In this document: positions 15,844 through 52,628 of the stretch, in pieces
How the letters are laid out: each line of letters begins with the position of its first letter
Position numbering within the stretch: the first letter of the stretch is position 1
Source of the DNA: a bacterium
GTDB lineage: Bacteria; Bacteroidota; Ignavibacteria; UBA10030
Assembly: GCA_007280275.1 (NCBI GenBank)
Contig: QYQB01000076.1
Location: 1 to 53,613 of the forward strand
Direction: 5' to 3'
DNA: 53,613 nt
Notes under the pieces: generated by a model
Seen by the model: the letters and a program-made list of their open reading frames with translations, nothing else
What the model was told of the DNA's origin: nothing
Database searches by the model: none
Program-made: the position numbers and the translations under genes

Positions 15844-15844
15844 T

Positions 15845-16861
15845 TCATTTTCCCTTTTCATTCAAATCGATAGTGATTTCCGCCTGTTCACTCCCCTGGT
15901 GTGTAACAAGTATGCGGTTCTCAGTGAACTGGAACAATCGCCAATTCAGAGACCCCTCGGCCACCGAACCCGTTTCAATCTGATAAACCGTCTGGCCGGC
16001 CGGGAATCTGATCCCTTCAAAAATGTTCGAATGCCCATGGCCGACAACCATTGCTTTGATGTTCGGATTCTCGTTCACGAGCTTTAACAGCCCATCCGAA
16101 CATTGCTTCGCGGTGGGCCAATCCAACAGACCGTGTTCCTTGAAGCAGATGCCATCTCCGTTGATGTCCCCAACCGAAAAATAGATATGAAAGAACAAGA
16201 TGACCGGCTCGCGCCCGGCGCTCGACAGTAGTTCCTTGAGCCAGTCAAACTGAACCTTGTCGATGACCCTTCCTTCGTCGTGCAGGCTGTAGCCGTTGTC
16301 AAGAAAGATGAAATGATAGTTGGTCCTGCCAACCCGAAAGATCCTGGAATAATAGGTGCCATCATGAAAACACGGGATGTTTCTTATCCAACTTGCACGC
16401 GCCCGGTCGGCAGAGGTCTGGGATTCAACGATCGTTGAGTCAGTATCATGAACGACATACTTCGTAAGGTCGTGATTGCCCAGCGTCAGATACAGTGGAA
16501 CCGGACACTGATCATTCACTGTTCTCAATTGTTCAATCTGATTCGCCAACAGCTTGTGGGATTTTGTTTCCCCCTCATACATGTCGAGCACATCTCCGGT
16601 GATTACAACAGCATCGGCTTTCACTTGTCTGGGAACCGATCTGAAAAACTCGGTCAGCGAATCGAGTCCGCTTCTGACAACGAAATGCCTGACCGGGAGC
16701 AACGGATGACATTCATCCTGGTTATACAGCAGATGGAGATCACTTGTATGAAGGACGTTCAGCGTGTCGACAGCTTGACCACGTGCTCCGTATGCAATCA
16801 GCACTGTGAACAGTGTCAAAGAGAACGCAATTTTGTAACGGCTCATCGAGATTCGTGACAT
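15845..16861 (-). CDS. Calcineurin-like metallophosphoesterase, exported
   Basis: Motifs LHTSDLHLL, VVITGDVLD, LGNHD and VVGHGH. Signal peptide present. Confidence 0.8.
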   Translation of the reverse strand: MSRISMSRYKIAFSLTLFTVLIAYGARGQAVDTLNVLHTSDLHLLYNQDECHPLLPVRHFVVRSGLDSLTEFFRSVPRQVKADAVVITGDVLDMYEGETKSHKLLANQIEQLRTVNDQCPVPLYLTLGNHDLTKYVVHDTDSTIVESQTSADRARASWIRNIPCFHDGTYYSRIFRVGRTNYHFIFLDNGYSLHDEGRVIDKVQFDWLKELLSSAGREPVILFFHIYFSVGDINGDGICFKEHGLLDWPTAKQCSDGLLKLVNENPNIKAMVVGHGHSNIFEGIRFPAGQTVYQIETGSVAEGSLNWRLFQFTENRILVTHQGSEQAEITIDLNEKGK

Positions 16862-20986: not shown

Positions 20987-21054
20987 TCAAGATTCTTGAT
21001 TAGAAATTCAACGATTGAATTCGAATTTAGCTAAGTCTGACTTCTTCTCAACTC

Positions 21055-22671: not shown

Positions 22672-22724
22672 AGCATCCCTCGATTTCCGCCGGAAGGTCC
22701 TCGTTCATGAGGCCACCGACGATT

Positions 22725-26529: not shown

Positions 26530-26533
26530 GGAA

Positions 26534-26992
26534 TCAGCCCTCCCGAACGATTGTTTCGATGGCTTCCCTGATCCTCTGGTACGTTCCGCATCTGCACAAC
26601 ACTCCGTTCATCGTCTCTGCTATTTGTTGTGGCGATGGCTTTGCGTTCTGATTCAGCATCGCCGCGAGGGTCATGATTTGACCGGGCTGACAGTATCCGC
26701 ATTGCGACACTTCCCGTTCAATCCATATTTTGAAAATGGGGTTGTTTTTGTTTGCTGCCAGACCTTCGATGGTCGTGATGGATTTGCCGGCAGCTTTCTC
26801 AATTGGCACGGAACAGGATTTCTCTGCTTTTCTATCGATGTGGACAGTGCATGCTCCGCACAACCCTTCACCGCATCCAAACTTCGTTCCCGTCAAACCA
26901 AGCGTGTCCCGCAGCACCCAAAGCAACGGCGTGTCCCCGTCGACCTCGACCGTTCTCTGTGTTCCGTTCACCTCGATTGCGTATCGTGCCAT
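26534..26992 (-). CDS. [2Fe-2S]-binding small subunit of the molybdo-hydroxylase (IorA-like)
   Basis: CGEGLCGACTV and QCGYCQPGQIM cluster motifs. The ATG at 26992 (MARYAIEVNG...) was chosen because the longer track ORF would overlap the upstream gene. Its stop lies 4 nt before the large-subunit ATG. Confidence 0.8.
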   Translation of the reverse strand: MARYAIEVNGTQRTVEVDGDTPLLWVLRDTLGLTGTKFGCGEGLCGACTVHIDRKAEKSCSVPIEKAAGKSITTIEGLAANKNNPIFKIWIEREVSQCGYCQPGQIMTLAAMLNQNAKPSPQQIAETMNGVLCRCGTYQRIREAIETIVREG

Positions 26993-27044
26993 AGGATTCC
27001 CTGCTGAATATTTCCCACTCGACGATTGATCTAAAGCCAGACGG

Positions 27045-33586: not shown

Positions 33587-33649
33587 CGCTCTGTTCTTGA
33601 TCTCACCCTCCCTTGACCTGCAACCGTTGTCTATTCACTTGTGAGAGGC

Positions 33650-37387: not shown

Positions 37388-38515
37388 CTACACCTTCACC
37401 CAGTTCTTCGACTCAACCGCTTTGTAAATTGTCTCAAGGAGATGGTGAAGCTTCAGGGCGTCGTGGAAATTTGGCGAGGGCATTCTGTCATTGACCACAC
37501 AGTCGAGAAAATTGAACTGGGCGGCAACGTGTGACCGAATCCAGCCCATCGAAAATTTGGGAGCCGGCATAATCGCCGGAGCCGGATATTTTTGGGCCGT
37601 ACTGATCGCCTTGTAACCCTGAATCCCCTTTGGTTCGTTCGCATTGTACGCCAGAAGCTCATTTGGCTTCATCAAATTGAAGCCCAGCGCACCATTCTGA
37701 CCGTTGATCTCGAAGCGCATTTCGTCTTCAGCGCCGGTTGCTACGCGCGACATTTCTGCAATCCCGATGCCCCCGTTCTTGAACCTCAAGACCGCCGTGA
37801 TCGCGTCCTCCACGTCCACTTTCCCCATCTTCTTCGGATTCTCCGGCAGCGGACGCTCCTTGAAAAATGTCTCCATCGTTGCGGAAACCATGTCAACATC
37901 TCCTACGAGGTATTGCATGATATCCAGGATGTGCGGACCAAGATCGACGAGAACGCCGCCGCCGATCAATTCCTTGACTAAGCGCCATTCGCGCGGTCGC
38001 TTTGGATCAATGTAGCCTGAATGAAGGTAGAGTCCCCGGAAATGAAATACCCGGCCTACAAAGTCTGCGTTGATCAATTCCTTGGCCTTCATGATCGCTG
38101 GAATGAACCTATATTCCGCTGTAATCTGGTGTTTCAGACCTGATTGGTCGGCAACTGCTACAATTTCCTTAGCTTCTGCCTCACTGAACGCAAGTGGCTT
38201 CTCACAGTATACGTGTTTGCCGTTCTTGAGAGCACCGATCACTTCCTCTTTGTGCATTTTATTGGGTGTACAGATGTTGACGACATCGATGTCGTTGCGT
38301 GCAATGAGCTCCCGATAATCTGTCGTGAATGACTCAAATCCCGCCTGCTCAACCCCCTTCTTCGCTAGGGATTCGTTCGTGTCACATACGCACTTAAGGT
38401 TGATTTTGCACGGATTGCCATCGTAGTAGAGCGGGATGGATCGGTAGGCGTATGAATGGATCCGGCCCATTTGCCCAAACCCGATCATCCCCACCCGGAT
38501 TTCCTTCTGCTTCAT
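37388..38515 (-). CDS. Gfo/Idh/MocA-family NAD(P)-dependent oxidoreductase
   Basis: Rossmann start IRVGMIGFGQMGRIH and the EKPLA motif (VYCEKPLAFS). The ATG at 38515 follows GGAAAGGGA; the track start at 38530 is TTG. Confidence 0.85.
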   Translation of the reverse strand: MKQKEIRVGMIGFGQMGRIHSYAYRSIPLYYDGNPCKINLKCVCDTNESLAKKGVEQAGFESFTTDYRELIARNDIDVVNICTPNKMHKEEVIGALKNGKHVYCEKPLAFSEAEAKEIVAVADQSGLKHQITAEYRFIPAIMKAKELINADFVGRVFHFRGLYLHSGYIDPKRPREWRLVKELIGGGVLVDLGPHILDIMQYLVGDVDMVSATMETFFKERPLPENPKKMGKVDVEDAITAVLRFKNGGIGIAEMSRVATGAEDEMRFEINGQNGALGFNLMKPNELLAYNANEPKGIQGYKAISTAQKYPAPAIMPAPKFSMGWIRSHVAAQFNFLDCVVNDRMPSPNFHDALKLHHLLETIYKAVESKNWVKV

Positions 38516-38587
38516 TGTTTCCCTTTCCAAATGATTGTTCTATGCCGCTTCAGTATAGTGACGCGTTCTCGAAACAACAGCCACGTG

Positions 38588-39412
38588 TTAGAGAGCCTTC
38601 AAGGCCTTCGTGACGCTCTGGCCGTCATGCACGATTGCCGCGAGGGCATGAAGAATCTTGGCAGGGTCTTTATGCTGCCACACGTTCCGTCCAAATACGA
38701 TCCCCTTCGCCCCACGATCTATCGCGTCTTTTACCATCTGCAGCATTTCACGGTCTGAATCCATCTTCGGTCCGCCACGCACCAAGATCGGTACGGACGA
38801 AACCCCGATCAGTTCCTCGAACTGTTTCTTTGTTTCAGGGAAATCGGCCTTGATGAGATCCGCTCCAATTTCTGACGCCATGCGGATAATCAATTTCATG
38901 ATTTCAAAGTCCCGTACAACATTTGCACCCTTCTGAATCGCCAGGGGCTCGACAATGAATGGAATCCCATACTCGCGGCTCTCGGCTCCAATCCGGGCCA
39001 GAGTTTGCATGTTGTCCGCTTCCTGCGCGTCGGTATCATACCCCGCGAAGAGAAACGTTACCACGGCGTCTGCACCGAGCTGCACGGCATCCTTCACCGA
39101 CGCAACATGTGTGTAGTATCCTTCTTTCGGGGTCGGCTTCTTCCGCCAGATATTGGTTGCGTCCAGACGTACGATCACACCCGGCTTATTCTTGCCATAG
39201 AACTTTGACAGGTTAGCGCGTGTCGTGCCGGGGGTCATTTGAATGGCGTCCGGATGTCCGGGGAGAAGCCCGTCGATCGCTTTCGCTGAATTTTCGATTC
39301 CCGGAAGAGGTCCGATGAACAGTCCGTGATCGATCGCAACAACAATGCCGTTGCCTGAAGATGGGTTCAGTATTCTGCTTGTTCGAAGTTGGTTGCCTGC
39401 TAAGGTTGACAT
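38588..39412 (-). CDS. Class I aldolase of the DeoC/FbaB(DhnA)/LacD superfamily
   Basis: VVAIDHG..., ADAVVTFLFAGY, ADLIKADFP (Schiff-base lysine context), ILVRGGPK, GIVFGRNVWQH. No Shine-Dalgarno site; preceded by the A/C-rich leader. Confidence 0.75.
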   Translation of the reverse strand: MSTLAGNQLRTSRILNPSSGNGIVVAIDHGLFIGPLPGIENSAKAIDGLLPGHPDAIQMTPGTTRANLSKFYGKNKPGVIVRLDATNIWRKKPTPKEGYYTHVASVKDAVQLGADAVVTFLFAGYDTDAQEADNMQTLARIGAESREYGIPFIVEPLAIQKGANVVRDFEIMKLIIRMASEIGADLIKADFPETKKQFEELIGVSSVPILVRGGPKMDSDREMLQMVKDAIDRGAKGIVFGRNVWQHKDPAKILHALAAIVHDGQSVTKALKAL

Positions 39413-40771: not shown

Positions 40772-40790
40772 TGTGGCTCCTTCGTGAATT

Positions 40791-41561
40791 CTAGACTCTG
40801 AAAACAAGGCTGCCCAATTCCCGCTCCAGGATGTTGTCTTGTGGGAACGCGTGCCCCAGGTGCTGACGGAACCCCTCACCGAACGCAACGCCGACTTCTT
40901 TCCCCCGTTTGGCCGAGAGCTGCTTCAACGAAGAATTGATATAGTCATCAACTTCGTGATGTGCCTGCAGCCAGCTTTGCTGGCTGGCGTGGCACCTGAA
41001 CATCTTTTCCTTCAAAGTCATCTTGCTGCTTATGTTCACAATCGTGGAAGCCTTGACCGCATCGCCGAGTATATCCTTCCCCTCAATAGGATCGACGTAG
41101 TAAAGGGCAGGGATCTTCAGGAACGGCCCGGTCCCCTCCGTTTCGATGTTCTTGATCCCGGCAGAAAAGCATGCAGTGCGGACCACTGCGCTCGTCATTT
41201 CGTGGTCGACCATATAGTCCTGCGGACTCATCGTCATCACGATTCCCGGTCGGACCTCCCTGATCAACCGGATAACCTTCAACAACGTAGGGCGGTCGTA
41301 CGTCACGAAGATGTCGTCGCACTCCATGCAATGGTACTTGCCATCCAGTATTTTCGCAGAGGCCGCGGCCTCTCCCTTACGGATTGTGCTGATCTCTGCT
41401 CTCGGGAGGCTCGTGGAGCCGCAATCCCCCGGGGTCATGGTAGCGAATTCGATCCGCCAGTCTTGTTCGTGCAGCAAGGCCAGGGTCCCGGCGCACAGGA
41501 TCTCGATGTCATCAGGATGCGCACCAATTGCCAAAACAGTTTTGGATTGTTCTATACCCAC
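40791..41561 (-). CDS. PIG-L/LmbE-family deacetylase, leaderless (cytoplasmic type)
   Basis: Canonical VLAIGAHPDDIEILCAGTL motif at the very N-terminus. 256 aa, GTG start. Confidence 0.8.
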   Translation of the reverse strand: MGIEQSKTVLAIGAHPDDIEILCAGTLALLHEQDWRIEFATMTPGDCGSTSLPRAEISTIRKGEAAASAKILDGKYHCMECDDIFVTYDRPTLLKVIRLIREVRPGIVMTMSPQDYMVDHEMTSAVVRTACFSAGIKNIETEGTGPFLKIPALYYVDPIEGKDILGDAVKASTIVNISSKMTLKEKMFRCHASQQSWLQAHHEVDDYINSSLKQLSAKRGKEVGVAFGEGFRQHLGHAFPQDNILERELGSLVFRV

Positions 41562-41659: not shown

Positions 41660-43603
41660 CTATTTTACTTCAAACTCACGCACGATGGTCTTCATCCCGG
41701 TCCCCTTTTTTGCAGTCACCTTCAACGTTGTTCTGTTTGGATCCAGGGAAATGACGTTTCTGAATTGACCATCAGTACCGACCTTCACGGGTTTGTCGTT
41801 GATTGAAATTTCTGTTCCCGATTCAGTCCAGCCGTTGATTTCAAGGAGAATCTGGCCAAAGACGATTCTTGTGTTTGCCATTGGATTCGACTGAACATAC
41901 AGCATCGGGCTTTTGCGGAGATCGAAGATCTCCTTAAGTACTTCACGCTTTGCGCCGTAAAGAACGTCTGGATCACGCGAAAACTCGGTTGTGGCCTTCA
42001 TGACCTTCGAAGCGATTTCCTGCCCCCGTTGCTCAGGCTTCATCCAGAATGCCGTGGGTCCCATCTCTTTCTTAAGTTGTATCATCTCCTGCTCGAGGAG
42101 CCAGAAATATTCATAGTCCGATAATGAGTTTCGCTCCTGTTCCAACCGGATGGAGTTGAGGATACCGTCCCTCTTCGGATAGACAAGGCAGTCTGAGCCA
42201 ATCCCATGCTGAGTCAGTCCCAGCTGCGTATACGGATCATCCGAGGCCCACTGATTGTAGCCCCAATGCAAATACCCTGTGATGCCGAACCTGTAGTTCA
42301 ACCAGTGAAGAAGTCTGGTCTCAATCAGCGGCGAGTCGATAAACCGATTTGGGTACGTTGTCGTTGACATAGCCATGTAGTACCACAACTCATTTCCTTC
42401 GGCCTGTCTCTTCTTGTAGATCTCCCACCAGTTGGTCAATTCATCCAATTTCGGGACCCACACCTCAAGCCTGTCGTCAAAGTACGTTCCCTCGATCGCA
42501 TCGATTCGCCTGACCGATGGCGCATAGGTATGCACGAAATCAGAAGCTTCGCGCCACGAGAGCACATTGTGATTGCATGGTTCATCGGAGATATGGAACA
42601 GGGTCTTCTCCAGCCACCCTTTTTCCTTCAGGTGTTTCTCGAACGCAGGGAGGAACTGCGGCAGAAATGCATCTCCTTTCATCTTGATGGACTTCCCCGT
42701 CACCTGATCCAGCACTTCACGTTCTTTCAGAACGATCTTTGTGTCCTCCCAATCGCCTGTTTCGAACTCTGCGATAAAGCCGGTTTCGATGCGGGACATT
42801 GCCCCCGTCTTTTCAAAGATCGTGACCCAGCGATCGAAATTCGTGAAATCAAAATGCAGGCTCTTCTCCCGATCCAGCTCGGCTGCAATGGAGTAGAGTT
42901 CCACGCGGAAGACATTCTGGCGATGGGAAGCCATGTTCTTGGCGTAGATTTCGATCAGCTTGAAGAATTGTTCATCGAAGGGTTTTTGAAAATCGTGATA
43001 CTTCTTGTTCATCTGATACCAGTTGGTGGTATACAGATTCGATTTCGCCGGCATCGTGAGCGGATAGACAGTCAGCTGCATATCCAGGAATTTGCTCCCT
43101 TTGTCGGTTTCGATTGTGAGCGTCCCTGTGTACTTTCCGGGAGCAGCATCTTTTGGGATGTCGATTGTCAGCCAGACGGACTGGAATTTGTCTTTCGGCA
43201 CGGCGATGCTTCGGTCTTCAGAAAGATAGTCCGGGAACAAACCAGGAGCTTTCCGGATCAGCGACTCCCCGCGGGAGATGTCGGTATTTACCTTCATCGG
43301 GACGCTTCTGACAAAATTGTAACGTATCTGCGCGGGAGGAATAGACCTATGCGACTCCAGGTTGACGAGCGTTACGGGCAGGACATGAACGGCGCCAAGA
43401 TCCGCATCGCCATGAATGACTGCCTGGGCGGAGAGCGTTTCACCTCTGATTCCAAATATGTCGATGTTCTTAACTTTTGGAGGAAGCTTGTATCCATCTT
43501 CGAACACTTTCACGACGTCACTGACACAGAACAGGTCAAAGGGGACGGTCTGCGCCTGAAGTGAAGCGCTCAAGAACAGGAGAGCAAGTAGTTTGGTTTT
43601 CAT
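41660..43603 (-). CDS. DUF4091 / GH123-like putative beta-N-acetylgalactosaminidase-type glycosidase, exported
   Basis: Signal peptide MKTKLLALLFLSASLQAQ. N-terminal beta-sandwich-like region, then a barrel-like region with FHISDEP (adjacent Asp-Glu, as in substrate-assisted HexNAc-ases). Family call is from memory of DUF4091 proteins, so moderate. The start overlaps the upstream stop (ATGA). Confidence 0.5.
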   Translation of the reverse strand: MKTKLLALLFLSASLQAQTVPFDLFCVSDVVKVFEDGYKLPPKVKNIDIFGIRGETLSAQAVIHGDADLGAVHVLPVTLVNLESHRSIPPAQIRYNFVRSVPMKVNTDISRGESLIRKAPGLFPDYLSEDRSIAVPKDKFQSVWLTIDIPKDAAPGKYTGTLTIETDKGSKFLDMQLTVYPLTMPAKSNLYTTNWYQMNKKYHDFQKPFDEQFFKLIEIYAKNMASHRQNVFRVELYSIAAELDREKSLHFDFTNFDRWVTIFEKTGAMSRIETGFIAEFETGDWEDTKIVLKEREVLDQVTGKSIKMKGDAFLPQFLPAFEKHLKEKGWLEKTLFHISDEPCNHNVLSWREASDFVHTYAPSVRRIDAIEGTYFDDRLEVWVPKLDELTNWWEIYKKRQAEGNELWYYMAMSTTTYPNRFIDSPLIETRLLHWLNYRFGITGYLHWGYNQWASDDPYTQLGLTQHGIGSDCLVYPKRDGILNSIRLEQERNSLSDYEYFWLLEQEMIQLKKEMGPTAFWMKPEQRGQEIASKVMKATTEFSRDPDVLYGAKREVLKEIFDLRKSPMLYVQSNPMANTRIVFGQILLEINGWTESGTEISINDKPVKVGTDGQFRNVISLDPNRTTLKVTAKKGTGMKTIVREFEVK

Positions 43604-45510
43604 CAGTCGGTCTTCTTGATGTTTTGATACCGCAAGTAGACTTTCGCTATTTTTAGATGCGAAGCGGGATTGGCAGCGCTTACTTCAAAGTGCACCTTCG
43701 TGTCGTTCTCGTACTCCTTGACCAATGATATGGGAGCCCATCCCCATGCGCCCCAGCTGACGGTAAATTCCTGCGTGTTCCCTTCATACTTCAATAGAAG
43801 TTTTTCAGGCATTGGTGAGTCGTTCAAGACAAGCAAACAGAGTTGAAGCGGTCCCCTCTTTGTAATGCCAAGATCGACCACAAGAGGTTTGCTTCTCAGA
43901 TCATGGGCTGTGAATCCCTGGATTTTCTCGCCCTGACCAACCGAGACCTTGGAGTCGGTGTCGAAATCGTCAAAGGTTTGAAGATCAGGAAGAGCCGGGA
44001 CTTGCACCAGTTCGCGTTGATCCGGCTGCAGGACATTGTTCGAGCATGTGAGCTTCACACACGTACCTTCCTCCGCTTCCACAAGTGCCTTCGTCACACC
44101 AACCGATCGACAGAACGCCGCGACAACGTTCGTTGAATTGCGGACATGGACAAGCGGTGCCGCGGCATTCCTGACTTCCCCGCGGACGAGGAGCAGGTCA
44201 GCATCCTTGACCCTGTCCAGGACAAGCGGCGCCCTTTTTTCATTCTCGACCGAATACATGGCAAGATTGTTGAGACGGAGTCCTTCAACGTTCCGGCAAT
44301 AAATACCGTACGCCGGAAGGTTTTTGAACATTCTTGCATACGGGTAGAGAAACTCTTCAAACGGGACCTTGTTGTACGGGAGCGGATTTTCGGTCTCGCT
44401 GTTGCGGACAGTATAATTGCTGATGGTTACGTTCTCGATTTTCTTCCCATGCATACCCATGATGCTGGACGGATACTTGGCATTCAGGACGGAAATGTTG
44501 CTCAGTGTAATGTCCTTTACATCATCGACTCTTGAGACATACTGCGCCGCCTTGTAGGGTCGCGCCCGGACTCCTATGCGAATGAAGAATGGAGTTGCGA
44601 CATTGACCATGGTGATGTTGTCGACCACGATGTTCTGCATCATGCCGCCATCGACTGTCATGAGCTCAATCCCCGCGTGATGCGGAAGATCTCTGATCGT
44701 GCAATTGCTGACGGTGATGTTCCGGAATCCGCCATTTGATTCGGTCCCGGTCTTTATGGCTGATGCTCTGGTTCTGATCACACAATTTGTAATAGCGATA
44801 TCTTCGCATATGACATCGCTTGAGGCTTTCATCACGATTGCATCATCGCCTGTCAAGAATCGGGAATTGGCTACGGTAACCCTTTGGCAACAATCGATGT
44901 CGAGGCCATCCCTGTTGGAGTCGACTCCATTTTCAATCACAATGCCATCGACGTTGACATCCCGGCAGCCGAGGAGGTGGAGGGTCCAGTTTGCAGCTTC
45001 CACAAGATGCACATCGCGGATGATCACGTTATCACAGTTGACCAATCGCATGAGAAATGGCCTCATGTTCTGAGGATTCCCCTTCTGAAAATTCTTCAGC
45101 CCGTTTCCATTGATAGTCCCACCACCGGTAACCGAAATGTTCCTGGCCCCTTCGGAAAACACCATGAAATACTTCGCATAGAGCAGGTTGGTTCGTGATT
45201 CGTATTTCTGAGTTATCTCGGTGTAGTCTGTGCTGTTCGGACTGCCGATCAGTTCCGCGCCAAGCTGCAGATGCAAATCGATGTTGTCCTTCAGCATCAG
45301 GGTTCCAATCTTGTATTTGCCCGGGGGAACGGTGACCACGCCTCCCCCGTTCTCATACGCCTTATCAATTGCGCGCTGGATGAAGGCTGTTTCGAGTGCG
45401 ATCCCGTCTCCCTTTGCACCCATGGTTTTCACGTCAAACTGCGACTGAGCGTTGGTCACACTCGGACAGAGCACCAACACCGCAGCAATCAGGGCCCGCA
45501 TCGTTTTCAT
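43603..45510 (-). CDS. GH28-family polygalacturonase-like glycosidase, exported
   Basis: FDVKTMGAKGDGIALETAFIQRAID..GGGVVTVPPGKY start, then NRDGLDIDCC and TGDDAIVMKAS (GH28 catalytic Asp motifs). Beta-helix repeats plus a ~200-aa C-terminal extension. Confidence 0.8.
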   Translation of the reverse strand: MKTMRALIAAVLVLCPSVTNAQSQFDVKTMGAKGDGIALETAFIQRAIDKAYENGGGVVTVPPGKYKIGTLMLKDNIDLHLQLGAELIGSPNSTDYTEITQKYESRTNLLYAKYFMVFSEGARNISVTGGGTINGNGLKNFQKGNPQNMRPFLMRLVNCDNVIIRDVHLVEAANWTLHLLGCRDVNVDGIVIENGVDSNRDGLDIDCCQRVTVANSRFLTGDDAIVMKASSDVICEDIAITNCVIRTRASAIKTGTESNGGFRNITVSNCTIRDLPHHAGIELMTVDGGMMQNIVVDNITMVNVATPFFIRIGVRARPYKAAQYVSRVDDVKDITLSNISVLNAKYPSSIMGMHGKKIENVTISNYTVRNSETENPLPYNKVPFEEFLYPYARMFKNLPAYGIYCRNVEGLRLNNLAMYSVENEKRAPLVLDRVKDADLLLVRGEVRNAAAPLVHVRNSTNVVAAFCRSVGVTKALVEAEEGTCVKLTCSNNVLQPDQRELVQVPALPDLQTFDDFDTDSKVSVGQGEKIQGFTAHDLRSKPLVVDLGITKRGPLQLCLLVLNDSPMPEKLLLKYEGNTQEFTVSWGAWGWAPISLVKEYENDTKVHFEVSAANPASHLKIAKVYLRYQNIKKTD

Positions 45511-45577
45511 AGACTCTGCTCCAACCTATTGAAATTACATTCCGTGTGCCGGACCATCGTTTACACCCCTCAACGTC

Positions 45578-45736
45578 AAGGGGCTGCCCCAAGAGTACTT
45601 CCGACCATCGATCTCTCCCCGGATTTCACCCACCATCGACGATGTTCGATACCCGTCCTGGTCGAAACGGCATTCCCGCGAACCCGCATGCACAGACAAC
45701 GGCGGGAAAGTCGACTAACGCTTGGGACAGCCCCTC
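45578..45736 (-). promoter_or_regulatory. Pair of 16-bp near-identical palindromes, or a 15-bp long-range RNA helix, in the 245-nt spacer upstream of the GH28 gene
   Basis: AAGGGGCTGCCCCAAG (45578-45593) and CTTGGGACAGCCCCTC (45721-45736) are reverse complements at 14 of 16 positions. In the minus-strand transcript the internal mismatch becomes a G-U pair. The 127 nt between them contain further local stems (ttcccgc/gcgggaa, ttcga/tcgaa, tcgat/atcga). Confidence 0.45.
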
Positions 45737-45756
45737 GGTACATCAGAGAATGGGTC

Positions 45757-47079
45757 TTAGACTGTTACCGCTCTCTTGGCAACTTTCTTCGCCGCATTCT
45801 TTATTCCCTGTACCATCATGTCGATATCATTGTCCGTCAGTCTCGGATGCATCGGCAGGTTGAACTCTCTCTTATAGAAGAACTTCGACGCGTTCGGACA
45901 TTGATTCGGATCGTATCCCATCTTCTTCAATCCGGTCAGGTGGAATGTCGGCTGATAGTGGAGAATCCCCTGGATCCCCTCTTCTTTGTAGAGCACTCTC
46001 ATGAATTCATCACGGCTCGCACCGAGCTCTTCTTCCTCGACGCAAACCGTATACAGGTGGAACACGTGCTTTGCCCATGCTTCTTCGAACACCGGAGAGA
46101 TTCCCTCAATCCCGGAGAGTCCTTTTGTGATCTTGTGGCCAATTTCCCTGCGCTTGTTTGTCAACATTTCAAGTTTGTCGAGCTGTGCAACTCCAACAGC
46201 AGCCTGAATTTCATTCATCCTGTAGTTGTTCCCCCAATGTCCTTTCCAGGTATCGACGTCGAAGTGCGATGGGAGCCAATAATCGAGGCTGCTTTCCTTT
46301 TTGATTACCGTGTCGCCAAAATGCCATTCCGTCTGCCCAGGCTTCCACTCTCCGAGATTCATACAACGAAGTTTATCGATCCCCTCGGCGAATTCATCAT
46401 TGTTCGTCGTGATCATCCCACCCTCGCCGCAGGTTGTCATATTCTTGAGAGAATGGAATGAAAACACACCGACATCGCCGATACTTCCTGCTTTTCGTCC
46501 CTTGTATTCGGCGGCGTGTGCATGGGCACAGTCTTCCATGACGAACAGTTTGTGCTTTTTCGCGATTTCCATGATCGGATCCATATCGACCATCTGACCA
46601 CCATAATGGACGACATAGATTGCCTTTGTCTTGCTTGTCACCTTCTCAGCGACTTTTTTCGGATCGATGTTGAATGTCCGGGGGTCGATATCCGCATATA
46701 CTGGAATCGCCTTTTCTTTCAAAACGACCAATGATGTCGCGATGAAGGTAGCGGGAGTGACGATGACTTCATCCCCTTCCTTGATATCGAATAGCTGGGT
46801 GGCGACGTGCATTCCCGTTGTGCAGTTCGTTGTTGCCCGCGCATGCTTTACTCCACACATTTTCGCAAAACCGGTCTGGAACTGTGTCGTCTTGGGACCC
46901 ATGGTGAGAGTCTCCCCATGCAACGCTGCAATGGCAGCCTTTTCTTCGGCTTCATCGTAAATCGAGCCCATGAACGCATAGGGTACTTTCAGCTTGACCC
47001 CGTCGTTGGTTGCATACGAACTCGTAATGCCCCCTTCTGTTTCCCCGCCCGAGATGTGCTTTTTTTCTTCGGTATTCAT
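45757..47079 (-). CDS. DegT/DnrJ/EryC1/StrS-family PLP-dependent sugar aminotransferase
   Basis: FIATSLVVL, HYGGQMVDMDPIMEIAKKHKLFVMEDCAHAHAAEY, GDVGVFSFHSLKNMTTCGEGGMITT (PLP-lysine context SxHxxK). 440 aa, no leader. Confidence 0.85.
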   Translation of the reverse strand: MNTEEKKHISGGETEGGITSSYATNDGVKLKVPYAFMGSIYDEAEEKAAIAALHGETLTMGPKTTQFQTGFAKMCGVKHARATTNCTTGMHVATQLFDIKEGDEVIVTPATFIATSLVVLKEKAIPVYADIDPRTFNIDPKKVAEKVTSKTKAIYVVHYGGQMVDMDPIMEIAKKHKLFVMEDCAHAHAAEYKGRKAGSIGDVGVFSFHSLKNMTTCGEGGMITTNNDEFAEGIDKLRCMNLGEWKPGQTEWHFGDTVIKKESSLDYWLPSHFDVDTWKGHWGNNYRMNEIQAAVGVAQLDKLEMLTNKRREIGHKITKGLSGIEGISPVFEEAWAKHVFHLYTVCVEEEELGASRDEFMRVLYKEEGIQGILHYQPTFHLTGLKKMGYDPNQCPNASKFFYKREFNLPMHPRLTDNDIDMMVQGIKNAAKKVAKRAVTV

Positions 47080-47100
47080 TTTCTCAATCTCCCTTGTTTG

Positions 47101-48168
47101 TTAGATCTGAATTTTAATACCATTGGCTTTAGCCGATTCATGGACTTTGAGAACCAACTCCAGGTTGTGGAGGGCATCGTCACCTGACATTCTGGGACCG
47201 CTCATGACAGAGCGGGCATGGTTTTGAATCACCATCCGGTAGATGTTTTGCTCTTTCTTGACTCTTAATTTGTGAGCGGCGGACTGGCGGCCGTCAATCT
47301 CGAGTCTGAGTTTAAGCGGTTCGTCCGAGTGACCTGAAAGCTGAAACAGAGTACCATAAGTGCTTAATGTCTTCTTGCTTCCATAGACTTCGTACCCGAG
47401 ATTCAACAGTGTGCCGTTTACCGAACCGCGTGGTTCGCTGAATGATACTCGAATGGTACCGGTTACATTCTTCTTCGTTGTGAAGTTTATGAATGCGCCA
47501 TTCTCAGCCTTGATCTCAATGACAGGCGGGGTATACACCGCCTGCACCGAGGCAATGGTGTCATTCAGAAGAAATTCGGCCATATACATACAGTGACTCG
47601 CCACATCACCCACGGGACCGCCGACCTCTTCGGGATTTGAGCACCTCCACGTCGCTGCCTCTTCCTTCGCAAACCCGTATGGGAATTCCATGTGCAACAC
47701 GATATGACTCACGTCGCCCACTCCCCCTTTTTGAATAATCTGACTTGCCTTGATGTTGTAGGCGTTGTAGAGCATCATATGATCAACGGCAAGACTCAGA
47801 TCGTTGTTCGAGGCGAGTTGCATCAGTTCCCTCGCATGGTCGAGGGTGGTCGTTATCGGTTTCTCAATGATCACATGTTTCCGTGCTTCCAGGAGTTGTT
47901 TTGCTATAGGGTAGTGAGAAAGATTGTTCGTCGCAACAAACACGGCGTCGGTATCTTTGCTTTCGCAGAGAGCATCAACTGAATCAAACCATTTCAACCC
48001 CATCTTTTTCGCCGCACTCTTCCTGGCTGCTGAAATGTCCATGGCTCCAGTTAGACGGGCATTGGGAAGAGGTTTGAACCGCGTTGAATCCATCGCGAAC
48101 CCTTCCTTGGCGATTCTGTTTTCAGCAATGCCACCAAAACCTGCGATTGCGTACCTGACGGTTTTCAT
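47101..48168 (-). CDS. Gfo/Idh/MocA-family NAD(P)-dependent oxidoreductase
   Basis: VRYAIAGFGGIAENRI Rossmann start and the VIIEKPIT motif. The start overlaps the kinase stop (ATGA). Confidence 0.85.
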   Translation of the reverse strand: MKTVRYAIAGFGGIAENRIAKEGFAMDSTRFKPLPNARLTGAMDISAARKSAAKKMGLKWFDSVDALCESKDTDAVFVATNNLSHYPIAKQLLEARKHVIIEKPITTTLDHARELMQLASNNDLSLAVDHMMLYNAYNIKASQIIQKGGVGDVSHIVLHMEFPYGFAKEEAATWRCSNPEEVGGPVGDVASHCMYMAEFLLNDTIASVQAVYTPPVIEIKAENGAFINFTTKKNVTGTIRVSFSEPRGSVNGTLLNLGYEVYGSKKTLSTYGTLFQLSGHSDEPLKLRLEIDGRQSAAHKLRVKKEQNIYRMVIQNHARSVMSGPRMSGDDALHNLELVLKVHESAKANGIKIQI

Positions 48169-49208
48169 TCGACCCCCTTTTCAACATGTTCGTGGTGCAA
48201 TTCGTGAAACGAGTATGTATCTCCCAATGCGAGACATGCTTCGTAGTCCCTGATGCCATCGGAGCAACTAATATCCTGCAGGCAAGCCGCTGCGGTGCAT
48301 ACTCCCAATCGAACCGATTGGTGCATATCCCAGCCTTCATGAATTCCCCAGAGAGTGCCTGCGGCAAAGGCATCTCCTGCACCAACGGTGCTCATAATCC
48401 GGCTGCCCGGAACTTGTACGGCACCCTGGAGTATCTCCTCACCCTGCTTGCTCAATGCAAAGACCCCTTTGGGGAAATGGATTAACACCCACTGGTTCAC
48501 CCCATGACGCAGGAGTTGTTTCGCTGCATCCCGCAGGATCTCCCGATCCGGGATATCATTGCACAAATCCAACCCGGTGCATCGACTTGCTTCGAATTCA
48601 TTCATGAAGAGCAAGTCCACATAAGGGAGCGACGGGACAATGATGTCGTTAAATCGATTACTCTCTTCACTGACCGTATCGACTGACGTAATAAGCCCGG
48701 TTTCTTGTGCTGCTTTCAGTAACCGTGCGGCACCGGTTACTCCATGACTGTCCATTTTATCAAGCTCGTCGAGAAGAAGAAGATACCCGAGATGGAACAA
48801 CTTGGCTGTCGACTGATGAACGTCAATGGGCTCAACCCCAAAGAGCGCATTCGCTCCCCGCTGATGGAAAAAAGTCCTCCGACCGGTGTTTTCAACGGAC
48901 ATCACATCCGTATACGAGGTATGAATACCCGGCGCACTCTTGAGACCACCCGTGTCGATTCTGTTGTTTCTGCATTCTTCTCTTATCCATCCACTGTCGT
49001 TGTCATCGCCAACCAACCCGAAACCCTTCAATGGAAAACGTGCACCCAAACGGGACAGATCCTTCAACACATTGAACGGAGCACCGCCGTTGCTTATTGA
49101 TTCGCGCCTTATGTTTGCCAGCGATTGCTCAGCCGGATAGACGTCGACCACTTTAATGTGGTCTACAATCCAGTTACCAGCTCCAATGATCCCGGCTCTT
49201 TCAGACAT
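48165..49208 (-). CDS. PfkB-family (ribokinase-like) sugar or sugar-phosphate kinase
   Basis: IIGAGNWIVDHI..., NGGAPFNVLKDLSRLG, and the C-terminal VGAGDAFAAG anion-hole motif. The ATG at 49208 follows GAGGGA plus 7 nt; the track start at 49223 is TTG. Confidence 0.85.
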   Translation of the reverse strand: MSERAGIIGAGNWIVDHIKVVDVYPAEQSLANIRRESISNGGAPFNVLKDLSRLGARFPLKGFGLVGDDNDSGWIREECRNNRIDTGGLKSAPGIHTSYTDVMSVENTGRRTFFHQRGANALFGVEPIDVHQSTAKLFHLGYLLLLDELDKMDSHGVTGAARLLKAAQETGLITSVDTVSEESNRFNDIIVPSLPYVDLLFMNEFEASRCTGLDLCNDIPDREILRDAAKQLLRHGVNQWVLIHFPKGVFALSKQGEEILQGAVQVPGSRIMSTVGAGDAFAAGTLWGIHEGWDMHQSVRLGVCTAAACLQDISCSDGIRDYEACLALGDTYSFHELHHEHVEKGVE

Positions 49209-49219
49209 TTGCAGATCCC

Positions 49220-49888
49220 TCAATCCCTCGCCGATTCGAAAATCAGCTTCCCGAAATACTGAGGCAGATGGAAATTCGGCGTCGGGTTTACAACCTCGCT
49301 CCAGGAGCCGTAGTGTTCAAACTCGGTCTCATCTCCGCATTTGTTGAAGTTGGCAATTGTCGCTTTGTCCACGAACTTTCTGCCGTAGTGCTTTTCAAAA
49401 AAGCTCTTCGGAATTCTTGCATGAAGCGTCCAATACGCGGATCCGTGGCTTCCGACAACAGGATGCTTAATTGACGAGATTATCTCAAAGCCCTCCGTGT
49501 CCTCCTCCTTGAAGTAGTGTCTCTTGCTGTCATCCCCGTCTTTGCCAACGCCGATCAACAGAACACCGAGGGCGTTCATTTCCATGTTTACATACTCTTC
49601 CGAGGACTCAGGAAACGGGTTCAGGAAGAATTCGACGCAGCTGTCCTTGAAGACATCGGATCCAAACGACGTATGCCTGATCGTTATGCGGTCTTCGAGA
49701 ACCAGGTAGTGCACATAGATGAATTTGTCGGTATGGAATACCTTGACACTCACCTGTGGAGCATACTTGTTTTGCACCCACTTGTAGTTGGCTATGAACA
49801 GTGCGCTAATGTCAGCCCAGAGTGCCGGCCTGGTGAAATCGTCTAAGTTTTGATGTTTCTTGATGACCGAATACGTTTGCTGTACCAT
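49220..49888 (-). CDS. Carbohydrate-binding-family-9-like (CBM9_2/DOMON-like) protein, leaderless
   Basis: 222 aa. DSCVEFFLNPFP, ANFNKCGDETEFEHYGSWSEV and PNFHLPQYFGKLIF match my recollection of the ~220-aa 'carbohydrate-binding family 9-like' proteins. No signal peptide. Confidence 0.55.
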   Translation of the reverse strand: MVQQTYSVIKKHQNLDDFTRPALWADISALFIANYKWVQNKYAPQVSVKVFHTDKFIYVHYLVLEDRITIRHTSFGSDVFKDSCVEFFLNPFPESSEEYVNMEMNALGVLLIGVGKDGDDSKRHYFKEEDTEGFEIISSIKHPVVGSHGSAYWTLHARIPKSFFEKHYGRKFVDKATIANFNKCGDETEFEHYGSWSEVVNPTPNFHLPQYFGKLIFESARD

Positions 49889-52289: not shown

Positions 52290-52628
52290 TTCATAACTCC
52301 TGCAATGCAACCCGCGAGTGCGAAACAGTGTCTTCGGACCGCGCATATATAGAAAAGCGCATCCATACCTTGGGGCGTCAGAGTTCGCGTCTACAATCCG
52401 AAGGAGGATACGCTCGTGAAGAGGTGCAAGAAAACCGTCATCGATTCGACAGGATCATCCGATTCGCTCGCCTTTGAATCCACCAAACTCCCTGCACGAA
52501 GCCCGATGGCATGTCCCGTGTCGTCCATCTTCCCCAGGTTGTCAGGCAGCACCGTGTGCCGGTACCGCCTGACTTCCATGAGGACACTTCGATCTTAGCA
52601 GCTCACCCAAACCTGATGGTGCCTGATA

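Follow-up and report, generated by a model that had tools for sequence, protein, structure and literature searches.

PLP aminotransferases of the DegT kind usually serve to build amino sugars. The locus analysed here raises the question of whether such an enzyme could instead take amino groups off sugars, since it is encoded within a large array of genes for the breakdown of N-acetylhexosamine polymers. On the minus strand of the analysed stretch of DNA (the window, 53.6 kb), four genes follow in succession that encode a CBM9_2 protein, a PfkB kinase, a Gfo/Idh/MocA oxidoreductase (Gfo355) and a DegT aminotransferase (Table 1). The open reading frames and Pfam matches agree with the families named in the initial annotation, which had proposed a catabolic amino-sugar route consisting of deacetylation, oxidation or transamination, phosphorylation and cleavage.

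Table 1. Features of the locus, in window positions, with the evidence for each
Feature	Position	Strand	Evidence
Secreted GH20 beta-N-acetylhexosaminidase-like protein (GH20_c), 799 aa	49947..52346	-	Pfam Glyco_hydro_20b + Glyco_hydro_20; hydrophobic N-terminal signal
CBM9-like protein, stand-alone, cytoplasmic, 222 aa	49220..49888	-	CBM9_2 PF16011, 1.6e-39, 136 bits; no signal peptide
PfkB-family sugar kinase, 347 aa from ATG 49208	48165..49208	-	PF00294, 6.5e-32, 111 bits
Gfo/Idh/MocA NAD-type oxidoreductase (Gfo355), 355 aa	47101..48168	-	PF01408 (N-terminal), PF22725, PF02894 (C-terminal)
DegT/DnrJ/EryC1/StrS-family PLP aminotransferase, 440 aa	45757..47079	-	PF01041 DegT_DnrJ_EryC1, 363 bits
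Structured spacer after DegT, 246 nt	45511..45756	-	closing stem, folding energy
Secreted GH28-like beta-helix hydrolase	43603..45510	-	Pfam GH28
Secreted GH123, beta-N-acetylgalactosaminidase family	41660..43603	-	PF13320, 181 bits; signal peptide
PIG-L/LmbE-family de-N-acetylase, cytoplasmic	40791..41561	-	PF02585; no signal peptide
DhnA/DeoC-family (DhnA-type) class I aldolase	38588..39412	-	family match
Second Gfo/Idh/MocA oxidoreductase (Gfo380, levoglucosan-dehydrogenase-like)	37388..38530	-	family + model matches
Second NagX-like acetyltransferase	14743..15861		NF046061
NagX-like transmembrane glucosamine N-acetyltransferase, one of two	7801..8910	-	NF046061

The genes are tightly packed, with one overlap of 4 nt and gaps of 11, 21 and 58 nt. 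The CBM9 stop codon was read from the sequence as TGA (49222-49220), and the kinase most likely starts at the ATG at 49208-49206 and not at the mechanically listed TTG at 49223 (open reading frame 48165-49223). The kinase Shine-Dalgarno sequence had been placed inside the 3' end of the CBM9 gene; a GAGGGA is indeed present there (49229-49224), but AGGGA at 49220-49216, which overlaps the CBM9 stop codon, is better spaced. As annotated, the oxidoreductase start and the kinase stop share an ATGA (48168-48165), and the aminotransferase ATG (47079) follows the oxidoreductase stop (TAA, 47103-47101) after 21 nt, a gap that contains AGGGAG. Gene overlaps are also kept in two related loci, L006 and L090. 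The description of the genes as lacking leaders is correct in the sense of signal peptides: an N-terminal hydrophobic signal is absent from all four proteins and present in GH20, GH28, GH123 and GH88. It does not apply to the mRNA, because Shine-Dalgarno-like sequences upstream of three of the four genes rule out a leaderless-mRNA operon.

No intergenic gaps in the window are larger than those before the GH20_c gene (282 nt) and after DegT (246 nt). Because these gaps bracket the genes, the transcription unit probably comprises five genes, of which the secreted GH20, located 58 nt upstream of the CBM9 gene, is the probable first. The spacer after DegT has a long closing stem (GGGGCTGTCCCAAG...CTTGGGGCAGCCCC) and a minimum folding energy of -101.5 kcal/mol (z -2.97); it matched no Rfam family, is conserved in L005 only, and likely forms the end of the unit.

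One co-directional array fills the window. Its 38 genes, all scanned for families, include three GH20 genes, GH123, GH28, GH88 and GH27 genes, four PIG-L genes, two NagX-like acetyltransferase genes and seven metallophosphoesterase genes, and several of the encoded proteins carry T9SS sorting domains. Signal peptides are lacking only in the four unit proteins, one PIG-L, two URO-D-like proteins, Gfo380 and the aldolase. The GH28-like hydrolase scored 278 bits against a BT4146-type rhamnogalacturonidase model, under its cut-off. The nearest structures to the cytoplasmic PIG-L are those of BshB1 (GlcNAc-malate deacetylase) and archaeal diacetylchitobiose deacetylases.

The order GH20-CBM9-(PfkB)-Gfo-DegT-GH28 is syntenic in other Ignavibacteria. 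It recurs in four other loci (L006, L007, L086 and L090) with protein identities of 56-82%, and is therefore not due to chance. In all four the GH20 orthologue lies directly upstream of CBM9, and in these syntenic loci DegT is 79-82% identical, versus 56-64% for its neighbours. Orthologues of Gfo355 (51-63% identity) adjoin DegT in the same four loci and in L001 and L013, and a GH28 orthologue is found downstream of DegT in L005, L006, L084, L086 and L090. Cytoplasmic PIG-L orthologues (62-78% identity) are present in L005, L006, L084, L090 and L093; PIG-L, Metallophos and NagX genes lie further along in L006 and L090, and L005 also has a GH123 orthologue. The kinase is an optional member of the module: L006 and L093 have an orthologue, whereas L007, L086 and L090 lack one.

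These comparisons bear on the route as first proposed, a route that would wholly replace NagA/NagB or AgaA/AgaS and in which GlcN or GalN would be deacetylated, transaminated or oxidised, phosphorylated by the PfkB kinase and cleaved by the class I aldolase. All the enzymes it names, including the nearby second oxidoreductase, aldolase and cytoplasmic PIG-L, are real, encoded in the window and cytoplasmic. The kinase translation shows GG and GAGD motifs, and among solved structures it is closest to E. coli YdjH (3h49, 1.7e-20), which acts alongside an aldolase on a phosphorylated ketose. The annotated absence of nagA, nagB and agaS from the window also holds, as the NagA, NagB, AgaS and ROK families had no match among the 38 scanned genes and tblastn of the window with a true nagA gave nothing. 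However, the closest relative, L005, has no Gfo380-aldolase pair between its PAP457 and URO-D orthologues, and the pair was not found in the examined stretches of L006, L086 and L090. Cleavage therefore falls outside the conserved module, and Gfo380 and the aldolase are a variable insertion. Nor is the kinase a fixed step, given the three loci that lack it. A LacC/LacD-type logic fares no better: the NCBIfam LacC and LacD models gave 41 and 35 bits, against cut-offs of 216 and 184, and every NCBIfam equivalog score of the kinase is far under cut-off. The claimed replacement of NagA/NagB, a view taken from the window alone, is further weakened by the two NagX-like genes (230 and 131 bits to NF046061, both below its 480-bit cut-off), which imply re-acetylation of GlcN; in the published model such acetyltransferases feed GlcN to the NagA route (PMC9007349). 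In addition, the DegT orthologues of L067 and L083 directly follow a true nagA in the same operon, and therefore the two routes would coexist rather than replace one another. Together these results make the complete substitute quite unlikely.

Sequence comparison places the DegT protein in a distinct, highly conserved group of 440-aa orthologues. Members that are 66-93% identical occur in Ignavibacteria, Lentisphaerota, Kiritimatiellia, Aminicenantes and Anaerolineae; the mean column identity is 76%, and Lys212 (in the motif SFHSLKN) and Asp183 are invariant. DegT carries a 37-aa insertion (241-277) when compared with perosamine synthase. In sequence and fold it comes closest to NDP-sugar aminotransferases (perosamine synthase, ArnB, PseC and Spr1654), and source databases name the orthologues 'perosamine synthetase'. 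These matches fit either presence or absence of a nucleotide-binding groove, which counts against a catabolic reading, and would suit ordinary nucleotide-sugar biosynthesis, with a UDP-sugar undergoing 3-oxidation and transamination as in GnnA/GnnB or WbpB/WbpE, placed in a degradative locus by coincidence. Yet DegT does not cluster with any named nucleotide-sugar enzyme: it scored under every NCBIfam equivalog cut-off (top, PseC, 277 versus 423 bits). Nucleotidyltransferase, sugar 4,6-dehydratase and glycosyltransferase families were not found among the 38 genes of the window, nor directly beside the orthologues in the contexts listed or scanned, with family scans covering fewer than half of the neighbour clusters; a lone GT2 (L042) lies four genes from a DegT orthologue, among unrelated genes. 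The partners of DegT are a sugar kinase and a CBM9-like protein, and its synteny is with GH20, GH28 and PIG-L. Nucleotide-sugar biosynthesis therefore seems highly improbable.

The neighbours of DegT orthologues were counted in 88 loci, those for deacylases within 3 kb on the same strand. Linkage to an N-deacylase is recurrent (44 of the 88 loci): creatininase-family hydrolases are found in 39, PIG-L in about 9, cyclase/formamidase-family proteins in 9, Amidase_3 in 4 and true nagA in 3. The initial catabolic reading is thus upheld in part, by the glycan-degrading setting, the N-deacylase neighbours and the conserved PIG-L, but not in its aldolase, its constant kinase or its replacement of NagA/NagB. 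NagC-like ROK regulators lie within 3 kb of the orthologue in 21 of the 88 loci, on the opposite strand in 20 of these 21, and GntR types also occur; both kinds of regulator are typical of catabolism. A setting that is catabolic and not biosynthetic is supported, against which it must be said that about half of the orthologue loci have no informative neighbour.

In Lentisphaerota the neighbours include creatininase-family and cyclase/formamidase-family proteins, M55 D-aminopeptidase, S15 peptidase and Amidase_3. The DegT group might accordingly act on a non-sugar amine freed by amidases, such as a derivative of an N-acyl amino acid or of a peptidoglycan peptide, which would make its occurrence in this sugar locus secondary. 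Fic25 (8gyh), which has a DegT fold and whose substrate is an N-acetyl diamino acid, argues in the same direction and against sugar catabolism. In Ignavibacteria, however, two glycosidase genes enclose DegT, which is translationally packed together with the genes for a CBM9-fold protein, a sugar oxidoreductase and a sugar kinase, and this, with the ROK regulators, leaves a non-sugar substrate very unlikely.

The direction of the reaction is a separate matter. To our knowledge, all characterised Gfo/Idh/MocA and DegT pairs (NtdC/NtdA, GnnA/GnnB, WbpB/WbpE and the inosose aminotransferases) run physiologically to amination. Gfo355 contains the motifs AGFGGIA and IIEKP and Asp44 after beta-2; the aspartate points to NAD+, hence to an oxidative function. 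NtdA (120 bits) and KabA (118 bits) are detectable relatives of DegT, and one of the top matches is the archaeal enzyme 7b0d, which bears the label glutamine-scyllo-inositol transaminase. Moreover, an AAC(3)-like N-acetyltransferase lies downstream of the orthologue in 10 Lentisphaerota loci, which is the biosynthetic order keto, amine, N-acetyl and speaks against catabolism, and in L026 and L063 the orthologue is preceded by a DHQS-like cyclase. These data would fit amination of a non-nucleotide, kanosamine-like or inosamine-like substrate, with the kinase making a sugar phosphate, Gfo355 oxidising it and DegT aminating it to an amino sugar or aminocyclitol for salvage, cell envelope or signalling. 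The module, however, contains no phosphatase or export gene, lies between secreted glycosidases beside deacetylases that create free amines, and has orthologues flanked by the catabolism-type regulators. We consider amination unlikely.

We favour, with chances that we judge about even, a reading in which the four genes and the secreted GH20 serve hexosamine-glycan degradation and DegT deaminates a sugar; the data suggest, short of proof, that transamination is how the bacterium strips amino groups from sugars. A catabolic route built on a DegT enzyme was not found in the literature searched. Observed directly are the genes present, the localisation signals and catalytic motifs, the synteny, and a DegT orthologue group that stands apart and is repeatedly linked to N-deacylases; what we infer here is the substrate, the position of the amine on the sugar and the sequence of steps, and most of all that the reaction runs towards deamination. 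The host would be an Ignavibacteria-type bacterium with a T9SS, and its very large locus would target a hexosamine-rich glycan, partly de-N-acetylated and probably phosphorylated. The secreted GH20, GH123, GH28, GH88 and GH27 enzymes, PIG-L and phosphoesterases would release small HexNAc/HexN sugars outside the cytoplasm, and the cytoplasmic PIG-L would take off the N-acetyl group, supplying a free amine. DegT could then transfer the sugar amino group via PLP to a 2-oxo acid, leaving a keto-sugar whose keto group Gfo355 would reduce to a hydroxyl. In support of this reading, 1,5-anhydro-D-fructose reductase (2glx, 2e-14) is among the top PDB hits of Gfo355, next to uncharacterised oxidoreductases. 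Where the kinase exists, it may phosphorylate the resulting neutral sugar or ketose and so admit it to central metabolism.

The CBM9-like protein would be a putative cytoplasmic accessory that binds reducing-end sugars. Its AF2 model (pLDDT 95) gave a Foldseek TM of 0.86 to BACUNI_03838 (4jpq), compared with 0.64-0.66 to the true CBM9 modules 7nwn, 7nwo and 1i82, and residues D82, S83, E86, N101, E103, W153, K183, C184, D186, H192 and W196 are invariant. In further support of the catabolic reading, CBM9 orthologues are also kept in a second type of locus (L089 and L093), in which the DegT proteins are non-orthologous paralogues and M20 and ceramidase-like amidases occur; L093 additionally has the PfkB kinase, the cytoplasmic PIG-L and an SSF transporter.

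The four open reading frames of the module were assigned by Pfam to the families that the initial annotation had given them, and the assignments agree for all four (see the table). Base-by-base reading placed the CBM9 stop codon TGA at 49222-49220. For the kinase, the most plausible start is the ATG at 49208, giving a protein that begins MSERAGIIGAGN, the TTG at 49223 being simply the start codon that comes earliest in the open frame. A GAGGGA sequence is present within the 3′ end of the CBM9-like gene, and a second, better-spaced AGGGA overlaps its stop codon. The reported fusion of the kinase stop with the start of the oxidoreductase gene was read in the sequence as ATGA at 48168-48165, and the distance between the oxidoreductase stop and the DegT start is indeed 21 nt, with AGGGAG inside this gap. 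The four genes had also been described as being without leaders. None of the four module proteins has the hydrophobic N-terminus that is present in the surrounding GH20, GH28, GH123 and GH88 proteins, and the description is therefore right as to signal peptides; leaderless mRNA, its other meaning, was not seen.

All credible genes of the 53.6-kb window are on the minus strand and form one co-directional array of 38 genes. Intergenic gaps in this array are mostly shorter than 120 nt, the two largest being a 282-nt gap upstream of the GH20 gene that precedes the module and a 246-nt gap downstream of DegT. Because these two gaps bracket the genes between them, and only 58 nt separate the GH20 stop from the CBM9 start, the transcription unit is likely to be GH20-CBM9-PfkB-Gfo-DegT. 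Scans with sigma-70 promoter and intrinsic-terminator consensus sequences, which are uninformative for this lineage, gave counts at chance level and no site in the gaps.

Features of the window
Feature	Position (nt)	Strand	Description
Co-directional array	1152-53546	minus	38 genes, mostly short gaps
Secreted GH20	49947-52346	minus	upstream of module
CBM9-like	49220-49888	minus	Pfam CBM9_2 (PF16011), 136 bits
PfkB kinase	48165-49223 (open frame)	minus	Pfam PF00294, 111.5 bits (cut-off 25.8)
Gfo355	47101-48168	minus	PF01408, 83.7 bits (N-terminal Rossmann); PF22725, 65.6 bits (C-terminal)
DegT	45757-47079	minus	DegT_DnrJ_EryC1 (PF01041), 362.8 bits (cut-off 19.8)
Spacer after DegT	45511-45756		246 nt
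Cytoplasmic PIG-L	40791-41561	minus	
PAP457	39515-40888	minus	phosphoesterase
Aldolase and Gfo380 pair	37388-39412	minus	Gfo380, second Gfo/Idh/MocA oxidoreductase
URO-D/MtaA-like	16927-17955, 36234-37271	minus	cytoplasmic
Molybdopterin oxidoreductase large subunit and 2Fe-2S subunit	24403-27094	minus	twin-arginine signal (TRREFI)
NagX-like membrane N-acetyltransferases	7801-8910, 14743-15861	minus	230 and 131 bits (cut-off 480)
Tandem PIG-L run	11831-14702	minus	3 paralogues
Tandem purple-acid-phosphatase-like run	18014-24350	minus	4 paralogues, 3 with T9SS tails
Tandem T9SS protein run	32408-34876	minus	2 paralogues
Glycosidases		minus	3 GH20, GH123, GH28, second beta-helix protein, GH88, GH27
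Deacetylases		minus	4 PIG-L: 3 with signal peptides, 1 cytoplasmic
Phosphoesterases		minus	7 calcineurin/purple-acid-type metallophosphoesterases

The array combines glycosidases, deacetylases and phosphoesterases, many of its proteins carry type IX secretion (T9SS) sorting domains, and an EamA transporter is also encoded; the window gave no match to a SusC/SusD-like or a corrinoid protein family. The locus degrades a glycan that is rich in hexosamine, in part de-N-acetylated and probably phosphorylated, and which may be lipid A, teichoic acid, PNAG/Pel, a glycosphingolipid or an amino-uronic acid polymer, each of these candidates fitting some of the genes. The molybdopterin enzyme may act as an oxidoreductase on aldehydes or sugars in the periplasm. 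The start listed for its 2Fe-2S gene, which makes a 50-nt overlap with the upstream gene, is probably set too early; similarly, the listed TTG start of PAP457 overlaps the PIG-L gene by 98 nt, and the real start is probably further downstream. The paralogous NagX-like pair stands alongside the three secreted PIG-L proteins, so that apparently opposing reactions outside the cytoplasm are encoded in one locus.

For the observed gene content, localisation, motifs and synteny of the module, a transaminase-based catabolic mechanism is in our judgement the best explanation, with about an even chance of being correct; what the enzymes act on, which carbon carries the amine, how the steps follow one another and in which direction they run are inferred. 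The polymer would be trimmed by the secreted enzymes, and the cell would take in small HexNAc/HexN units, which the cytoplasmic PIG-L would de-N-acetylate. DegT would then pass the amine to a 2-oxo acid, the keto group of the resulting keto-sugar would be reduced by Gfo355, the oxidoreductase of the module, and the product would be phosphorylated by the kinase where a kinase is present, while the CBM9-like protein would bind free reducing sugar in an accessory role. In the case of a 2-amino sugar, GlcN would be converted to glucosone, then to mannose, glucose or fructose and finally to hexose phosphate, and the sugar nitrogen would be kept as glutamate.

The DegT protein has the predicted Schiff-base lysine K212 (in SFHSLKN), which aligns with the catalytic lysine of perosamine synthase, and D183 (in EDCAH), which pairs with the pyridine nitrogen. 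Both residues are invariant in 31 orthologues, and the protein is thus of the aminotransferase type and not a His-type dehydratase. Four cysteines (Cys86, 184, 239 and 394) are also invariant; an E1-like Fe-S site was considered for them and then set aside. The orthologue group is compact (about 435-445 aa; mean column identity 76% over 31 diverse members), and its members are 66-93% identical among Ignavibacteria, Lentisphaerota/Victivallales, Kiritimatiellia, Aminicenantes and Anaerolineae, the nearest being encoded in a Bacteroidota MAG (93%) and in Ignavibacteriaceae and Melioribacteraceae MAGs (80-82%). By these nearest loci, the window comes from a Bacteroidota member of the Ignavibacteria type. 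Compared with perosamine synthase, the group has a 37-residue insertion (241-277) and a conserved N-terminal extension, both near the expected entrance. Insertion length as a marker of free-sugar use was ruled out, since 6ewj, one of the longer relatives, is Spr1654, a predicted nucleotide-sugar (AATGal) aminotransferase. Sugar aminotransferases carry a motif after the catalytic lysine that, on our reading of bioRxiv 10.1101/2021.09.04.459008, is K-x4-GEGG in the C4 type and K-x-L-G-x-x-GDGG in the C3 type. The motif of the module's enzyme, K-NMTTC-GEGG, is a hybrid of the two, with five residues as in the Archaeoglobus protein 7b0d (KNLGAYGDGG) and GEGG/TT as in perosamine synthase (KIITTGEGG).

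Tight clustering of the DegT protein with nucleotide-sugar biosynthetic enzymes had been named as the outcome that would speak against a catabolic role. The protein scored below every NCBIfam equivalog cut-off, the best being PseC (277 versus 423.5 bits), followed by ArnB (228 versus 631), the WecE type (222 versus 375), RfbH (174 versus 423) and DesI (167 versus 650). In addition, its solved relatives mix NDP-sugar and non-nucleotide enzymes at similar scores: perosamine synthase (200 bits), 7b0d, which is labelled a glutamine-scyllo-inositol transaminase (191 bits), ArnB (182-185 bits) and QdtB (179 bits), with BtrR, NtdA, KabA and AHBA synthase lower in the list. By these scores, such clustering is not seen. 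Ordinary NDP-sugar biosynthesis, to which the matches with perosamine synthase, ArnB, PseC and Spr1654 would be suited, is most improbable, and no glycosyltransferase, nucleotidyltransferase, sugar 4,6-dehydratase or ROK family was found among the 38 genes of the window. Foldseek comparison of the AF2 model (pLDDT 82) gave TM scores of 0.71-0.77 alike for NDP-sugar, inosose and non-sugar DegT enzymes, and the fold therefore does not reveal the substrate. The Foldseek list includes Fic25, whose substrate is an N-acetyl diamino acid; we consider it very unlikely that the orthologue group acts on a non-sugar amine.

The preferred catabolic mechanism would give the CBM9-like protein a role in binding free sugar. 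Its AF2 model (pLDDT 95) has the CBM9 fold according to Foldseek, with a TM score of 0.86 to BACUNI_03838 (4jpq) and of 0.64-0.66 (probability 1.00) to the true CBM9 modules 7nwn, 7nwo (a glucose complex) and 1i82 (TmCBM9-2); haem-binding CBM9-like subunits of ethylbenzene dehydrogenase and nitrite oxidoreductase appear lower in the list. The orthologue family is small (96 matches) and has a conserved polar/aromatic constellation. CBM9 of xylanases, which shares this fold, binds reducing ends and free glucose (7nwo). Classical CBM9 modules are extracellular and appended to a glycosidase, whereas the module's protein is a stand-alone polypeptide of 222 aa that has no signal peptide and whose gene is translationally coupled to that of the kinase or the oxidoreductase. 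Such a stand-alone cytoplasmic CBM9 coupled to enzymes has no described role. In Parapedobacter (L091, 6847-8645) a distant CBM9_2 homologue (36%) directly follows an APH-family kinase gene, which is again a kinase together with a cytoplasmic CBM9-like protein. The cytoplasmic PIG-L is closest to BshB1 and to archaeal diacetylchitobiose deacetylases (3wl4, 3we7, 8bgn), enzymes that expose the C2 amine of GlcNAc glycosides.

The catalytic motifs of the other two enzymes are intact. The oxidoreductase Gfo355 contains the glycine-rich AGFGGIA, Asp44 and the EKP motif (IIEKP), and it matches generic family members, with 1,5-anhydro-D-fructose reductase (2glx, 4koa) among the top solved relatives at 52-57 bits. 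The latter enzyme acts on 2-keto sugars, glucosone among them, by reducing the keto group at C2, the chemistry that would be needed after transamination of a 2-amino sugar; it is however NADPH-dependent, whereas Gfo355 has the Asp typical of NAD enzymes. The kinase has the N-terminal GG (SNGGAPFN) and the C-terminal GAGD catalytic/anion-hole motif (VGAGDAF), and its nearest solved structure is that of E. coli YdjH (77 bits), which supplies its partner aldolase with phosphorylated higher ketose acids. An orthologue from Cytophagales that lies outside the group has housekeeping neighbours.

A PfkB kinase followed by an aldolase, as in YdjH/YdjI and LacC/LacD, is the logic that the initial annotation had invoked. 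The aldolase of the window differs from these systems in being DhnA/MJ0400/LsrF-like, in lying at a distance of about 9 kb and in not being conserved together with the module, and the LacC/LacD models were not reached by the kinase (TIGR03168, 41 versus 216 bits) or the aldolase (PRK12858, 35 versus 184 bits). The aldolase and the neighbouring Gfo380, which is levoglucosan-dehydrogenase-like (307 bits), form an insertion relative to L005, the closest related locus, where the PAP457 and URO-D orthologues adjoin with nothing between them (8117-8241). The pair, absent at that position in L005, is thus outside the conserved set, and its proposed part in the pathway is not upheld. The scheme as a whole, in which the aldolase is the last step and NagA/NagB are replaced, is quite unlikely. 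Its second element is in line with the finding of no Amidohydro_1 NagA, Glucosamine_iso NagB or SIS AgaS among the window's 38 genes; it is weakened by nagA standing in one operon with DegT orthologues at two loci (L067 and L083) and by the two NagX-like genes of the window, which in the published model feed GlcN back into the NagA route by re-acetylating it for use by NagK/NagA/NagB (Price et al. 2022, PMC9007349). Free-amine hexosamines are handled in the NagX route as they would be by the module, which however would bypass re-acetylation; the NagX-like enzymes and the module may serve different sugars.

The gene order GH20-CBM9-PfkB-Gfo-DegT-GH28 was found in L006, and a kinase-less version of it in L007, L086 and L090. 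PIG-L, Metallophos and NagX genes come after the module in L006 and L090, and overlapping or abutting stop-start junctions are kept (CBM9/PfkB in L006, CBM9/Gfo in L090). Across the syntenic loci identity is highest for DegT (79-82%), the CBM9-like protein, PfkB, Gfo and the glycosidases being 56-64% identical. At least 20 metagenome contigs apparently carry CBM9 and kinase orthologues together, judging by contigs of identical length in the two sets of matches. The DegT orthologue occurs with a Gfo355 orthologue (51%) and a GntR regulator in L001/L013, and near URO-D, Gfo, AP_endonuc_2, Amidohydro_2 and SSF transporter genes in L004 and L085. URO-D/MtaA-like genes recur beside DegT orthologues and Gfo genes (L004, 14512-15549; L085, 8828-9886 and 14952-17018; L025, 8104-9291), with one URO-D::Gfo fusion in L085. 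A second locus type (L089, 191-13291; L093, 1323-19122) has CBM9 orthologues at 50-53% identity, a Gfo protein and two non-orthologous DegT paralogues each (434-452 aa, 32-35% identical to that of the window), as well as an M20 amidohydrolase and neutral-ceramidase-like amidases (two in L093, one in L089); L093 additionally has orthologues of the kinase (60%) and the cytoplasmic PIG-L (62%) and an SSF transporter.

Neighbours of the DegT orthologue were counted as tblastn matches within 3 kb at 88 loci, about half of which are uninformative; because most loci are Lentisphaerota, they are phylogenetically non-independent and so are the counts. A deacylase-type neighbour of any sort was present at half of the loci (44/88). 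Encoded on the same strand as DegT were a creatininase-family hydrolase (PF02633; 39 loci), a cyclase/formamidase-family protein (9), a PIG-L of the Lentisphaerota type (8), Amidase_3 (4) and nagA (3; above its equivalog cut-off, 252.8 versus 225.65 bits), while a NagC-like ROK regulator was found at 21 loci, on the opposite strand in 20 of these. The orthologue is widespread in Ignavibacteria that degrade glycans and also in Lentisphaerota/Kiritimatiellia, where its partners are creatininase-family and other N-deacylases instead. Among the contexts listed or scanned (a minority of neighbour clusters was family-scanned), no nucleotidyltransferase, sugar 4,6-dehydratase or glycosyltransferase lies directly beside the DegT orthologue; a single GT2 was found in L042 four genes upstream, amid unrelated genes, and L002, L003 and L088 have genes of the NAD-dependent epimerase/dehydratase family at a distance of about 6-7 kb. 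A conserved operon of Victivallaceae encodes a creatininase-family hydrolase, a cyclase-family protein, the DegT orthologue and an AAC(3)-like N-acetyltransferase that is extended at its C-terminus, with the NagC-like ROK regulator divergent (L010, L012, L017-L019, L021 and L023; for example L017, 2267-7969). In L067 (5833-11332) and L083, the DegT orthologue is immediately preceded, on its own strand, by genes for a PdxK-like kinase, Amidase_3, a true NagA and a SAM methyltransferase, which may point to a connection with the recycling of peptidoglycan or amino sugars.

An AAC(3)-like N-acetyltransferase gene is located directly downstream of the DegT orthologue, on the same strand, at 10 of the 88 loci, and its presence in Lentisphaerota, like all biochemical precedent known to us, favours the same enzymes running toward amination of a non-nucleotide substrate in the manner of NtdC/NtdA. 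In the kanosamine systems NtdC/NtdA/NtdB of Bacillus subtilis and KabC/KabA/KabB of B. cereus, a Gfo/Idh/MocA dehydrogenase and a DegT-family aminotransferase likewise act on a sugar phosphate that is not nucleotide-linked. These systems are however biosynthetic, leading from glucose-6-P to kanosamine, and need a HAD phosphatase, whereas the module stands in a degradative context, adds a kinase and a CBM9-like protein, and has no HAD phosphatase in its unit. Moreover, NtdA (4k2b, 120 bits) and KabA (7kz3, 118 bits) match DegT no better than many NDP-sugar enzymes do, and NtdC is not among the matches of Gfo355 at E≤1e-10. We regard operation toward amination as unlikely. The same two protein families stand side by side in GnnA/GnnB and WbpB/WbpE (UDP-GlcNAc(A) 3-dehydrogenase and 3-aminotransferase), and WbpE structures match DegT; the UDP-GlcNAc 3-dehydrogenase model gave 71 bits with Gfo355 (cut-off 450), and these pairs act on UDP-sugars in envelope-biosynthesis clusters, whereas no nucleotide-sugar machinery is near the module.

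The degradative direction, which we prefer, resembles in part the archaeal chitin route of Thermococcus/Pyrococcus (Dac deacetylase, GlcN, kinase, GlmD), where a cytoplasmic PIG-L/LmbE deacetylase also yields free hexosamine that is then phosphorylated. There an isomerase-deaminase releases the amine of GlcN-6-P as ammonia, whereas an aminotransferase and a reductase are proposed for the module. A cytoplasmic PIG-L followed by a kinase is hence already known from archaeal chitin catabolism, and the pairing of Gfo/Idh/MocA and DegT proteins is well known from the kanosamine, GnnAB, WbpBE and inosamine pathways. Our literature search found no description of a DegT-type enzyme that lies within a glycan-degradation locus and is syntenic with it, of a distinct, very conserved DegT orthologue group linked to N-deacylases across phyla, or of a cytoplasmic CBM9-fold partner, and nothing relevant on DegT-based catabolism, glucosone/glucosamine transamination, PF16011/BACUNI_03838, kanosamine catabolism or YdjH. 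It is possible, if somewhat doubtful, that the module represents an undescribed form of amino-sugar catabolism, combining DegT transamination, Gfo reduction and phosphorylation with a cytoplasmic CBM9-fold protein as a new kind of pathway component.

In soils, sediments and guts, amino sugars make up a major pool of organic nitrogen. To our knowledge, the only bacterial ways out of this pool that are well established are deaminase/isomerase reactions on the 6-phosphates, and little is known of what becomes of the rarer amino sugars of microbial envelopes. The DegT route could supply a path, so far missing, for amino sugars from microbial cell-wall debris that are rare or carry the amine elsewhere than at C2. 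A sugar aminotransferase that works degradatively would pass sugar nitrogen straight to glutamate, would account for thousands of "perosamine synthetase" annotations in degraders that lack the matching biosynthetic genes, and would assign a function to a cytoplasmic CBM9-fold family. The module is a good and cheaply testable lead, not a demonstrated pathway.

The spacer after DegT folds as a long closed hairpin (-101.5 kcal/mol, z -2.97) with the closing stem GGGGCTGTCCCAAG/CTTGGGGCAGCCCC. An Rfam scan of the whole window matched no family, and the spacer is therefore not a known riboswitch or ncRNA. There is no second copy of it within the window, and its outer stem is kept in L005 only.
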